Below are positions 22,275 to 49,846 of a DNA stretch of 64,000 nucleotides, piece after piece. Under the pieces are notes generated by a model. It was not told the origin of the DNA. It made no database searches and worked only from the letters and a program-made list of their open reading frames with translations. The stretch is taken from assembly GCA_963762565.1 (NCBI GenBank), contig CAVXLD010000001.1:1056001-1120000 (forward strand), written 5' to 3'. The translations under genes were made by a program, and so were the position numbers. Position 1 is the stretch's first letter, and each line of letters starts with the position of its first letter. This DNA is from an uncultured Verrucomicrobiae bacterium (GTDB lineage: Bacteria; Verrucomicrobiota; Verrucomicrobiia; Chthoniobacterales; JAFAMB01).

Positions 22275-24467
<2,193 letters not shown>

Positions 24468-24665
24468 TTAAAACGCCAAGCGAAGTGGCCAATTTTAGCC
24501 ACCCAGACCAAAGTAAACTTTCATGCGGTAAGGCTGCACGCCCAGTACGAGAAATCGGACTGAAGACGCTCCAATCAGTGCTCCACCGCTCCAATACTCC
24601 GCCACTCCGCCACTCCACTAGTCCGCTCGCCACGCCCCCTCGGCAAGACCTACTCCCGCCGACCC

Positions 24666-24681
24666 TGGCACACCCCTTGCT
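24666..24681 (+). promoter_or_regulatory. Sigma-54 (-24/-12) promoter
   Basis: TGGCAC-ACCCC-TTGCT is an exact match to TGGCAC-N5-TTGCW, in an intergenic position. Confidence 0.8.
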
Positions 24682-24691
24682 ATCTAAATTT

Positions 24692-24810
24692 GAAACGAGC
24701 GGTCATAAAAGGGGCGCTGGCTCGGTTGGAAGGGAAAGGTTACCGGGAGTCTGGGGGGGAACGCCGGAAACCTTAGGGAGAGCAAAACCAACCGAGCCGT
24801 TTCCTTTTTC
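24692..24810 (+). ncRNA. Candidate structured small RNA (GGA-rich long stem-loop ending in a U-tract)
   Basis: Perfect 11-bp helix 24719-24729/24788-24798; inner helix 24736-24746/24764-24774; purine-rich internal loops; begins about 12 nt after the sigma-54 motif. Confidence 0.6.
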
Positions 24811-24957
24811 GTCCTCACGGACACTGCTTACTGCTCACCACCCCTCATCAGTAACCACCCCCCTAGTTTCTCTCTGCTGTTGGCACAGCCGCGAACCTGG
24901 TGAAGGTTACGGATCTGTTTCACCCGCGTTCTACCGGCGTCATCCCCTCCCTACGAT

Positions 24958-25446
24958 ATGGATTCCACTGACTTCGAAATCCTTGCGCTAATTCAAAACG
25001 ATGCTCGGGTCGCACACGCCACGGTCGGCGAGCGGCTTGGTCTCACCGCGCCGGCAGTTCACGCGCGGATAAAGCGCCTCGAACGCGAAGGAATCATCAA
25101 GGGTTATCTCACCTCCATCGATCCGATCGCGGTCAACCAAAACCTGCTGGCCTTTGTCCGAGTCACGAACAACGCGAAGGTTGGCGACGAAGAGCGGTTC
25201 GAGAACTTCGTCTGTCAGGAACCGAACATTCTCGAGTGTCACGATATCTCCGGTGAAGATAGCTATCTCTTGAAGATCAGGGTCGAGTCCCCTTCCTCAT
25301 TGCGACACCTTCTCTTGCGAATCCGAGATTTCCCCGGTGTCGAACGAACCGTAACTTCGATCTCCCTATGTACGATAAAAGAGATGGGAGGTCCGCCGCT
25401 GCCGGCACCAGTACCCGAAGCATCCGGGGTGATTGGTGAGAAGTGA
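24958..25446 (+). CDS. Lrp/AsnC family transcriptional regulator
   Basis: N-terminal HTH (DFEILALIQNDAR...RIKRLEREGII); ECHDISGEDSYLLK. Confidence 0.95.
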   Translation: MDSTDFEILALIQNDARVAHATVGERLGLTAPAVHARIKRLEREGIIKGYLTSIDPIAVNQNLLAFVRVTNNAKVGDEERFENFVCQEPNILECHDISGEDSYLLKIRVESPSSLRHLLLRIRDFPGVERTVTSISLCTIKEMGGPPLPAPVPEASGVIGEK

Positions 25447-48244: not shown

Positions 48245-49846
48245 ATGAACGTTGAGTTTCTCAAAGATGTCGCGCTTGCCGTTGCTCAGGAGCAGCATCT
48301 TGAGACGGTCATGAACATGATCGCTGAAGGGATCGGCCAAGACCCCAAGGTTGCTTTGGTCCGGCTCTGGCTCCTCCGACCAGGCGATATATGTGCCGAA
48401 TGTTATGTGCGGTCGCAGTGTCCCGACCAAACTCGTTGTCTGCATTTGGTGGCTAGTGCCGGCAAATCACTGGATCAAAAGGAAAGTTGGACCCGGCTCA
48501 ATGGAGCCTTCCGCCGATTCCCGCTCGGAGTTCGCAAGGTCGGGTTCATGGGCAAATCAGGCGAATCAATTCTGATCCCCGATCTTGCCGTCGACCAAAA
48601 ATGGGTCACAAACCCTGATTGGGTGAAGCGGGAAGAGCTCCGGAGTTTTGCTGGTCACCCTTTAAAGTTTCGGGAGGAAGTACTGGGTGTGCTGGGCGTC
48701 TTCAGCCGCACGCGGCTGACTGAGAACGTGTTCGGTTGGTTACGTACGTTCGCGGATTCAGCAGCCGTCGCCATCACCAATGCAAGAAGGTTCGAAGAGA
48801 TCGATCGGTTACGGGCCAAACTGGAATTAGAGAACGAATATCTCCAGACCGAGATTAAAGAAATCTACGATTTCGGAGAGATTGTTGGCCAATCAGCCGC
48901 GTTGAAAAAGGTGCTGGAGCAAATCCAGCTGGTTGCCGGCACAAATGCAACCGTTCTGATTCTAGGCGAGTCAGGGACCGGCAAAGAGTTGATCGCCCGG
49001 GCAGTGCACGAGCGGAGTTCGCGAAAAGAGAGACCATTTATCAAGGTCAACTGCGCGGCTATCCCGGAGAAATTGTTCGAAAGCGAATTCTTCGGCCACG
49101 TTAGAGGCGCTTTCACCGGCGCCGATAAAGACCGGATGGGCCGGGTTCAGCTGGCAGACGGAGGCACCCTTTTTCTGGACGAGATCGCTGAGATACCCAT
49201 CGGTCTTCAAGCCAAGCTTCTCCAGGTATTACAGGAACAACAATTTGAACGGGTCGGAGAAGCCCGGTCCCGAAAAGTAGATGTCCGCATCATTGCTGCC
49301 ACCAATCGCGATCTAGAGAAAGAGATCGAAAATGGAAACTTTCGAAGTGACTTATTTTATCGGCTCAGCGTTTTCCCAATAAAAACGCCACCCCTGCGGG
49401 AACGCCGCGAAGATGTCCCGCTACTGGCTGTGCACTTCCTCAAGACGTGTGCAAAGCAGATGAATATCCAGGCGCCGAAACTGACCAAGGGCCACATTGA
49501 ACGGTTACAGGCGTACGATTGGCCCGGGAATATTCGTGAGCTACAAAACGCCATCGAACGCGCCGCCATTTTCGCCCAGACCGGCGCACTCCAGTTCGAA
49601 TTTCTCTCACTCGAGGCTCCGAAATCAGACGTTTCAATGAAGAGTGTTCCTTCCGCCCCCACCCCGAAACCTGACTCCATCATTTTGACCGAGGCTGAAC
49701 TTAAGAAGCGCGAACGCGAAAGCATCATTGCTGCTTTGGCCCAGGCCAACGGCAAAATTTCCGGCCCACGAGGCGCCGCAGAATTGCTCGGTATGAAACC
49801 GACAACTTTGGCCTCCCGAATCAAGGCCCTTGGCCTGAAGGGCTAA
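48245..49846 (+). CDS. GAF-domain sigma-54-dependent activator (FhlA/HyfR-like bEBP)
   Basis: [29 protein letters not shown]-terminal HTH. Confidence 0.95.

Follow-up and report, generated by a model that had tools for sequence, protein, structure and literature searches.

The 64,000-nt stretch of DNA analysed here (the window; positions 1,056,001 to 1,120,000 of contig CAVXLD010000001.1, assembly GCA_963762565.1) belongs to the 6.1-Mb genome of an uncultured bacterium of the verrucomicrobial order Chthoniobacterales (genome G000), and it contains, between a DNA ligase gene and an Lrp-type regulator gene, an element that is very probably a stand-alone gene for a structured small RNA (sRNA) of ~120 nt, with a predicted sigma-54 promoter and, among the genomes searched, an occurrence only in Chthoniobacterales. 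The spacer that holds the element, as delimited by the open reading frame (ORF) listing and Pfam matches, covers ~680 nt (24279-24957; unless stated otherwise, coordinates are window positions). To its left lies ligA, encoding the NAD-dependent DNA ligase, as a divergent neighbour on the minus strand (22275..24278); to its right, and outside the RNA gene, follows a gene for an Lrp/AsnC regulator on the plus strand (24958..25446), with a C/U-rich start region. An earlier note on this DNA, made from its letters, had placed the element between these two genes; both do flank it, with ligA divergent and in need of correction at its 5' end. The open frame of ligA extends to 24443 and exceeds the conserved N-terminus by 55 codons (24279-24443), and its adenylation domain begins at residue 127 in the window frame vs. 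~72 in relatives; the likely start is the ATG at 24278, not 24443, which gives the spacer its length of ~680 nt. Automatic annotation may over-extend ligA in this way.

The predicted sRNA gene occupies 24692..24812 on the plus strand, according to its fold and to covariance-model matches; the 5' end was placed by the usual distance from a -12 element to the transcription start, and the 3' end by a T-tract. The sigma-54-type promoter (24666..24681) consists of the -24 element TGGCAC (24666-24671), five intervening nucleotides and the -12 element TTGCT (24677-24681); the sigma-54 promoter consensus has GG at -24 and GC at -12 with ten bases between them, in a TGGCAC-N5-TTGCW-like context. The RNA is modelled as a rod built of a basal helix and a long covarying helix, with an internal loop inside them that carries a variable hairpin. 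In the basal helix P2a, the 5' strand AAAGGGG (24708..24714) pairs with TTCCTTT (24801-24807), including two G-U pairs; the main helix P2 is a perfect 11-bp duplex of GGCTCGGTTGG (24719..24729) and CCAACCGAGCC (24788..24798); the inner helix P3 joins AAGGTTACCGG (24736..24746) to CCGGAAACCTT (24764..24774) by ten pairs and one A/A mismatch. G-runs occupy the predicted single-stranded segments: the left internal loop AAGGGA (24730..24735), the apical loop (24747..24763) with its run of seven G at 24753-24759, and the right internal loop AGGGAGAGCAAAA (24775..24787), which reads GGGGGGAAA in most relatives. The 3' strand of P2a continues into a T5 tract (24805-24809), a terminator-like end (24801..24809). 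When the sequence was re-read, the promoter, the helices, the U-tract and six GGA motifs described in the earlier note were all found in place. The GGA motifs fall within 24728-24779, an unusual density: 52-nt regions of this kind occur only twice on the plus strand and four times on both strands of the window. A frame of 16 codons that begins with TTG lies inside the RNA in G000; between relatives, the changes in length of the variable hairpin are out of frame.

Taken alone, the consensus box and the fold are each within what chance could give. The strict pattern TGGCA[CT]-N5-TTGC[AT] occurs seven times in the genome, where ~11 occurrences are expected from composition; the minimum free energy of the window element is -45.4 kcal/mol (z = -2.18), with 6 of 200 shuffles folding equally well; the reverse strand of the element folds too (z = -3.03), and a simple terminator scan left the window hairpin unflagged. 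These chance-level box counts, the folding of the reverse strand and the other repeats in the spacer would suit a DNA-level element, either a protein-binding palindrome or a dispersed repeat, beside a fortuitous sigma-54-like box. The element was judged real because its promoter, structure and copy number are conserved in relatives.

Four of five genomes of the same genus carry a stretch of 74-78% identity whose borders are the promoter box and the T-tract, again with ligA upstream on the opposite strand and Lrp downstream. For wider searches, three successive covariance models were used, all of which left out the promoter box, the first being built from the transcribed part only. The first model found exactly one locus each in 27 of 43 genomes of the window's own family (f1; genera are given below as g-numbers), G000 included. 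The second matched in 35 of a sample of 151 Chthoniobacterales genomes, in none of 146 genomes of other orders in the phylum, and in none of the four sampled genomes of same-order families without the RNA. Training on 43 sequences drawn from several families gave the third model, which matched in 66 of the 151 Chthoniobacterales genomes; by family, the counts were 12/15 in f1, 8/8 in f5, 11/15 in f6, 4/15 in f7, 6/15 in f8, 5/15 each in f12 and f13, and 14/15 in f16, and 0/37 in f2, f3, f4, f9, f10, f11, f14 and f15 together. Genomes of family f6 have two to three loci each, including one tandem pair (L134; G150:C326:22190-22610) in which two RNA copies lie ~45 nt apart with a sigma-54 box before the first only; this pair may represent a dicistronic sRNA precursor. 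The predicted length of the RNA in relatives is 80-137 nt, with a median of 112 nt.

A pattern scan of 185,579 species genomes (one per species) required the promoter together with family-type arms, and undercounts the family for that reason. It returned 32 loci, and the model confirmed 28 of these, one weakly; all 28 come from metagenome-assembled genomes of Verrucomicrobiota, labelled as Verrucomicrobiota, Verrucomicrobiae, Chthoniobacterales or Chthoniobacteraceae. The unconfirmed pattern loci (two in Planctomycetaceae, others in Proteobacteria and Coraliomargarita, and the locus L076) look like chance matches within coding sequence or a long palindrome. The RNA family is previously uncatalogued: in a search of the whole window against Rfam 15, only a tRNA reached its gathering score; within 24300-25100, searched to E <= 10, the sole match on the element was narK (E = 8.9), by way of the promoter-like box; and 11 homologous loci gave no match at E <= 0.1. 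The proposal of an undescribed sRNA is thereby sustained, since neither the window element nor these 11 homologues matched an Rfam family.

The structure is conserved beyond its sequence. In a plain MAFFT alignment of 31 sequences with a hand-written structure, 84.2% of cells pair vs. 32-46% when the 3' partners are slid by one to three columns; double changes occur in 17 of 27 pairs, and none of 500 shuffles reaches the observed covariation score. A 43-sequence alignment that was fitted to the model, and hence leans towards the structure, shows 85.8% pairing vs. 30-45% after sliding, with compensatory double changes in 25 of 27 pairs and none of 500 shuffles reaching the observed value on any of five measures. 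Gathering homologues and testing their covariation had been suggested as a check on the hairpin, and it came out in favour of the RNA in both alignments. Among the individual helices of the 43 sequences, P2 is paired in 94.9% of cells, with compensatory changes in 12 of 14 pairs; P3 shows double changes in all seven modelled pairs and is 80.4% paired, its stem sequence differing by genus while the hairpin always forms; P2a is the weakest helix, with 70.6% of cells pairing but double changes in all six modelled pairs. An additional 5' hairpin (CGTTCG...CGAACG) appears in many lineages, not in all, and is not clear in G000. A T-run of at least four follows P2 within 25 nt in 38 of 63 parsed homologues, and one of at least three in 51 of 63; no simple terminator was seen in the remaining 25 of the 63.

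The many G-U pairs, which would become A-C on the other strand, and the low model scores of the reverse strand (~33-35 vs. 83-93 bits) fix the plus strand as the strand of the RNA. The same observations bear on the DNA-level alternative: the element is a single copy in the 6.1-Mb genome, its compensatory changes include the many G-U pairs, the reverse strand scores far lower, and the promoter box lies on the same side and at a constant distance in 71 of the 72 loci examined. Against this background, a palindrome or repeat that acts as DNA is a most improbable account of the element.

The promoter box, which had no part in the models, can be followed through the homologues. A GGCA[CT]-N6-TGC box (equivalent to GG-N10-GC) precedes the main helix by 40-64 nt in all 27 family loci; after four loci were added, GG-N10-GC was present in 31 of 31, and it was also found in 17 of 17 loci of other families and in 23 of 24 further loci, several of them with slightly degenerate -24 elements. 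The sigma-54-type promoter box claimed for the window is, in this sense, conserved across the order. The gene rpoN was found in G000 (one Sigma54_DBD match), in 39 of 43 family genomes and in 147 of 151 genomes of the order; checking the genome for rpoN and csrA, as had been recommended, also turned up two CsrA genes in G000. To judge from the promoter sequence, transcription very likely depends on sigma-54 (RpoN). A sigma-54 promoter implies that the RNA needs an enhancer-binding activator, and G000 has ~14 full-length genes for enhancer-binding proteins (strong Sigma54_activat matches, frames of 377-585 aa); the nearest in the window, a 570-aa frame, lies ~24 kb downstream of the RNA (window ~48881-49381; G000:C1:1104881-1105381). 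A TGGC-N8-GCCA dyad with a T-rich centre was found in 13 of 48 upstream regions, where 0.2 are expected, and is nearly confined to the window's family; it lies at 24486-24501 in the window and, in most family loci, 95-385 nt (mostly ~100-205 nt) upstream of the sigma-54 box. In G000 the dyad accompanies only one other sigma-54-like box, a number that chance could give. The dyad could be an activator site or a control site of ligA. TGGCGAT...TTTG blocks similar to the dyad occur in loci of families f12 and f13.

The gene neighborhood bears on a further alternative, raised in the earlier note, in which the element is the 5' leader or attenuator of its downstream gene, here Lrp, and the hairpin and T-tract act as a regulated terminator. 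The RNA is indeed encoded on the Lrp strand, 145 nt upstream, a same-strand Lrp gene comes next in 12 of 27 family loci, and the Lrp start region of genera g1 and g8 is pyrimidine-rich and complementary to the G-runs: a pyrimidine tract (e.g., catcccctccctacgat) stands directly before the Lrp ATG, in place of a Shine-Dalgarno (SD) motif, in 5 of 5 g1 loci and 4 of 4 g8 loci, and is absent in three g4/g5 loci. The downstream gene nonetheless varies and is often convergent. Elsewhere in the family it encodes an autotransporter, a Na/H exchanger, LysE, uricase, NusA, malic enzyme or a P-type ATPase, and in other families a glyoxalase, RNase HII or a PilT-like ATPase; counting only ORFs with a Pfam hit, the first one downstream is convergent in 8 of the 27 family loci, and of 17 loci in other families, 11 have a convergent ORF as the nearest one downstream, 10 of these being backed by Pfam. 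Sequence conservation also ends at the T-tract, and the interval from the RNA to Lrp contains a separate conserved block, which would suit a promoter belonging to Lrp itself. On these grounds, an attenuating Lrp leader is very improbable and is already contradicted at most loci. The conserved block (cctggtgaa in g1, atctggtgg in g8) lies ~60-70 nt before the Lrp ATG (window 24880-24957) and recurs at matching places in L029-L032, L034, L040, L046 and L047. On the other side of the RNA, all 27 family loci have ligA as their divergent upstream neighbour, as do 7 of 17 loci in other families; the ligA start regions share no motif with the RNA and have no conserved C-run. The adjacency to ligA is read as retained gene order, since the RNA and ligA do not overlap and share no start-region motif.

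The conserved single-stranded unit of the RNA is the G-run, not GGA. A G-run of at least three is found in the left loop of 34 of 43 homologues, in the apical loop of all 43 (at least four G in 42) and in the right loop of 37; GGA is kept in 21 left loops, 13 apical loops (24 if two stem bases are counted) and 34 right loops. The mean predicted probability of being unpaired is 0.70 for the left, 0.75 for the apical and 0.68 for the right G-run, vs. 0.34 for all bases. This bears on the suggestion that the RNA sequesters CsrA/RsmA, at least in the window's own family. The six GGA within 52 nt in G000 agree with such a sponge, as does the GGA in 34 of 43 right loops (GGGGGGAAA in family members); CsrA was found in 35 of 43 family genomes, including 10 of 10 of high quality, and G000 has two CsrA genes and no FliW, so that a CsrA antagonist would otherwise be missing. 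Outside f1, however, only 4 of 53 RNA-bearing genomes have a CsrA match and 49 have none; the CsrA counts are 0/15 in f16, 0/8 in f5, 0/15 each in f13 and f12, and 1/15 in f6, whereas the RNA is present in 14/15, 8/8 and 11/15 genomes of f16, f5 and f6, respectively. The two also part company between genera, since in g6 the RNA is present in 2/2 genomes but CsrA in 0/2, and in g11 CsrA is present in 3/3 but the RNA in 0/3. Moreover, the apical loop of genus g4 is without GGA, and each molecule offers just three to four candidate sites, several of them in internal rather than hairpin loops. As a general role, the CsrA sponge is disfavoured by the absence of CsrA matches and the poor retention of GGA; what speaks for it in G000 is the six GGA and the two CsrA genes. 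FliW, Hfq, ProQ and Ro60 (TROVE) were searched for in G000 and none was found, which leaves CsrA as the only known global RNA-binding regulator found in this genome and keeps a family-specific CsrA role alive, as an improbable option. An idea modelled on Y RNA and Ro was dropped, there being no TROVE protein in G000.

The G-runs have a counterpart in the start regions of G000 genes. Homopolymer runs of at least six nucleotides were counted up to 30 nt upstream of ORFs of at least 250 aa outside any longer frame; 57 of 833 C6 runs, 16 of 833 G6 runs, 82 of 3292 A6 runs and 78 of 3292 T6 runs lie near starts in this sense, with ~7 expected under uniform placement. Most of the C-runs (45 of 57) end 0-15 nt before the start, on the coding strand; examples are found at C1:396001, C1:541251, C5:340785 and C12:390117 of G000. 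An SD-like motif precedes only 137 of 703 G000 ORFs with an unambiguous start, from which it follows that the C-run occupies the place of a weakly used SD. By Pfam, 38 of the 57 C-run genes belong to the classes of nutrient uptake, catabolism and LacI/AraC regulators: periplasmic or extracellular solute-binding proteins (9), other nutrient transporters such as LamB porin, MalK-type ATPase and sugar, peptide and short-chain-fatty-acid carriers (12), sugar enzymes (6), organic-acid/acyl-CoA enzymes (7), LacI regulators (3) and an AraC regulator (1). Among 57 random control ORFs without an upstream C-run, solute-binding proteins and LacI regulators were absent and ~9-13 fell into the same broad classes; the others were mostly housekeeping genes. 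In another genus, a C-run of at least five lies within 36 nt of the start in 10 of 26 Peripla_BP_4 genes (genome G016), and genomes of two other families each show it in one of two such genes (G039, G074). The Lrp gene of the window belongs to the C-rich minority of starts.

It is conceivable, at somewhat less than even confidence, that the RNA base-pairs, through its exposed G-run loops, with the C-runs of translation start regions, a suggestion that draws on the complementarity of the two. The loops would then serve as seeds for C-runs located 0-15 nt upstream of many start codons, and the target mRNAs in G000 would mostly be those for periplasmic solute-binding proteins, for sugar, peptide and organic-acid transporters, for LacI/AraC regulators and for catabolic enzymes. 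Once the activator fires, the RNA would alter the translation of this nutrient-uptake and catabolism regulon, most likely by occluding the ribosome-binding region, a sign of regulation that we infer. More speculative, and rather doubtful at present, is the wider proposal of a post-transcriptional circuit for nutrient choice, peculiar to Chthoniobacterales and with the RNA as its hub: a sigma-54 activator would sense the nutritional state and switch on a multivalent, Hfq-independent sRNA, whose three G-run loops would clamp the SD-replacing C-runs before dozens of uptake and catabolic operons. If true, this would be a verrucomicrobial counterpart of catabolite repression that works by kissing of G-runs and C-runs, not by Hfq/Crc or CsrA.

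Several observations weigh against the proposed pairing and the circuit built on it. The tie between the RNA and the C-runs consists only of complementarity; on the 57 start regions, the native loops reach -24.5 kcal/mol vs. -24.76 +/- 0.71 kcal/mol for loops with shuffled flanks, and 122 of 200 flank-shuffled controls that keep the G-runs pair at least as well as the native loops. The complement of the G000 apical loop, CCCCCCAG, is not favoured at starts (0.17 vs. 0.10-0.24 for other C6 contexts), C6 before ATG is about as frequent as G6 before ATG in a crude count (173 vs. 169), and the apical run has only four to five G in genus g4. As caveats on the start-region counts, the functional classes were set after the list was seen, gene starts were taken from a crude ORF rule, and sites with a spacer upstream may favour the first genes of operons. 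Three RNA-less genomes examined for comparison have zero Peripla_BP_4 genes; the RNA-bearing families f16 and f6 have only two such genes in the genomes examined, and a regulon, if real, must consequently differ between families. No activator gene stands beside the RNA in 17 loci of other families, and the search for the dyad, its distribution and its genomic partners did not identify an activator site for the RNA promoter. Finally, the sequencing runs found for this stretch comprise 19 DNA runs and one soil metatranscriptome (X20), whose contigs cover 24375-24404 (a repeat) and 25096-25300 (inside Lrp) and leave 24470-25080 uncovered.

The same loops could alternatively act as a decoy or sponge for the ribosome or for a protein other than CsrA that recognises G-rich single strands. 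Here the three exposed G-runs would be repeated binding sites, and a sigma-54-driven supply of the RNA would titrate the partner away, as with CrcZ or GlmY. Each molecule has three to four repeated exposed G-runs, several families add a GGGGAAA linker after the 5' hairpin, family f6 has multiple copies as is common among titrating RNAs, and the flank-shuffle result, with no sign of pairing beyond the runs, is equally compatible with motif recognition and with short seeds. A candidate partner is nevertheless missing, given that Hfq, ProQ, Ro60 and FliW were not found in G000; in other families, no conserved neighbouring protein gene accompanies the RNA; and the strand-specific C-runs at the start regions of uptake genes would be left unexplained. 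On balance, a decoy of this kind appears unlikely, although it ranks next after the proposed pairing.

Among known systems, GcvB offers the closest mode of action if the proposed pairing of loops and C-runs is right. The seed of GcvB is G/U-rich and its targets are C/A-rich, with lrp among them; the RNA described here would likewise use a G-rich seed on C- or pyrimidine-rich sites upstream of transporter and binding-protein starts. Beyond this likeness the two differ throughout: GcvB is enterobacterial and Hfq-dependent, and the RNA here has no sequence or structure similarity to it and no Rfam hit, in a genome in which Hfq was not detected; GcvB is controlled by GcvA/GcvR, whereas the present RNA stands behind a sigma-54 promoter; GcvB has one linear seed, vs. 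three separate loop seeds; and its regulon centers on amino acids, whereas the candidate regulon here is biased to sugar uptake and catabolism. Published accounts call GcvB a master regulator of the transport and metabolism of amino acids, with numerous ABC transporters among its targets (PMC9299463; PMC4474525).

CrcZ and CrcY comparisons concern the logic of the circuit, and those with other sigma-54-dependent sRNAs concern the gene type. GlmY, NrsZ, Qrr1-5 and a Campylobacter RpoN-dependent sRNA are reported as sigma-54-dependent sRNAs (PMC3045617; PMC4253122; PMC10162802; PMC11187230); as these sources describe them, they resemble the present RNA in being stand-alone genes behind a -24/-12 promoter that needs an enhancer-binding protein, and some are multi-copy. 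They differ in belonging to Proteobacteria or Campylobacterota and to Rfam families of their own, none of which matches here. CsrB, RsmY and RsmZ share with the RNA several GGA-containing single-stranded sites in one small molecule; the differences are that CsrA is missing from most RNA-bearing genomes, that GGA is not the conserved unit, and that the sites are far fewer here. The promoter of CsrB/RsmY/RsmZ is of the GacA type, in contrast to the sigma-54 type found here. In Pseudomonas, CrcZ (also named in the earlier note) and CrcY are sigma-54-dependent sRNAs with a repeated short motif, and they control how mRNAs for taking up and catabolising less-preferred carbon sources are translated; these mRNAs carry a motif at the ribosome-binding region. 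The logic proposed for the present RNA resembles this circuit in its sigma-54-driven expression and in the start-region motif of uptake and catabolic mRNAs; CrcZ, however, titrates Hfq/Crc through A-rich mimics of the mRNA sites, whereas the G-runs here complement the C-runs of mRNAs and are not copies of them. The RNA has no homology to CrcZ/CrcY, and Hfq was not found in G000.

Chthoniobacterales are known almost solely from soil metagenomes, and literature searches on Verrucomicrobia sigma-54 small RNA and on Chthoniobacter noncoding RNA yielded no paper on regulatory RNAs of the order. The element provides the Chthoniobacterales with a well-supported RNA family that has a defined promoter class, a covarying structure and a clear phyletic range, and the family model is ready for an RNA family database and for genome annotation. 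The sigma-54-dependent sRNAs compared above come from Proteobacteria or Campylobacter, and the present RNA extends the list to another phylum. Should the C-run lead prove right, the RNA would also explain an odd trait of these genomes, the C-runs at the ribosome-binding position of many transporter genes, and would hint at how soil bacteria that use polysaccharides and sugars rank their nutrients.

The spacer and the RNA flanks contain further sequence features. A dispersed repeat of ~31-47 nt lies at 24373-24421 (within 24360-24470), in the 5' region of ligA; it has 254 blastn-short matches across G000 and a weak chrB-a-like Rfam match (E = 0.48), and looks like a REP-type element. The depth of soil metagenome contigs reaches ~1980 over 24368-24469 vs. 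~5 for the flanks. A short tandem or dispersed motif of the CCACTCC/CCGCCACTCC type occupies 24576-24636; parts of it match many sites in G000 and in same-genus genomes with 79-93% identity, and on the minus strand it constitutes one of the four GGA-dense regions of the window. Downstream of the RNA, loci of genus g4 (e.g., L036, L035, L038, L049) share a conserved block of the tgcgaattaa-ggggcgtcgcgc type ~15-25 nt after its end, and in g8 and related genera the RNA is followed by a ttgacc...tacactttt block.

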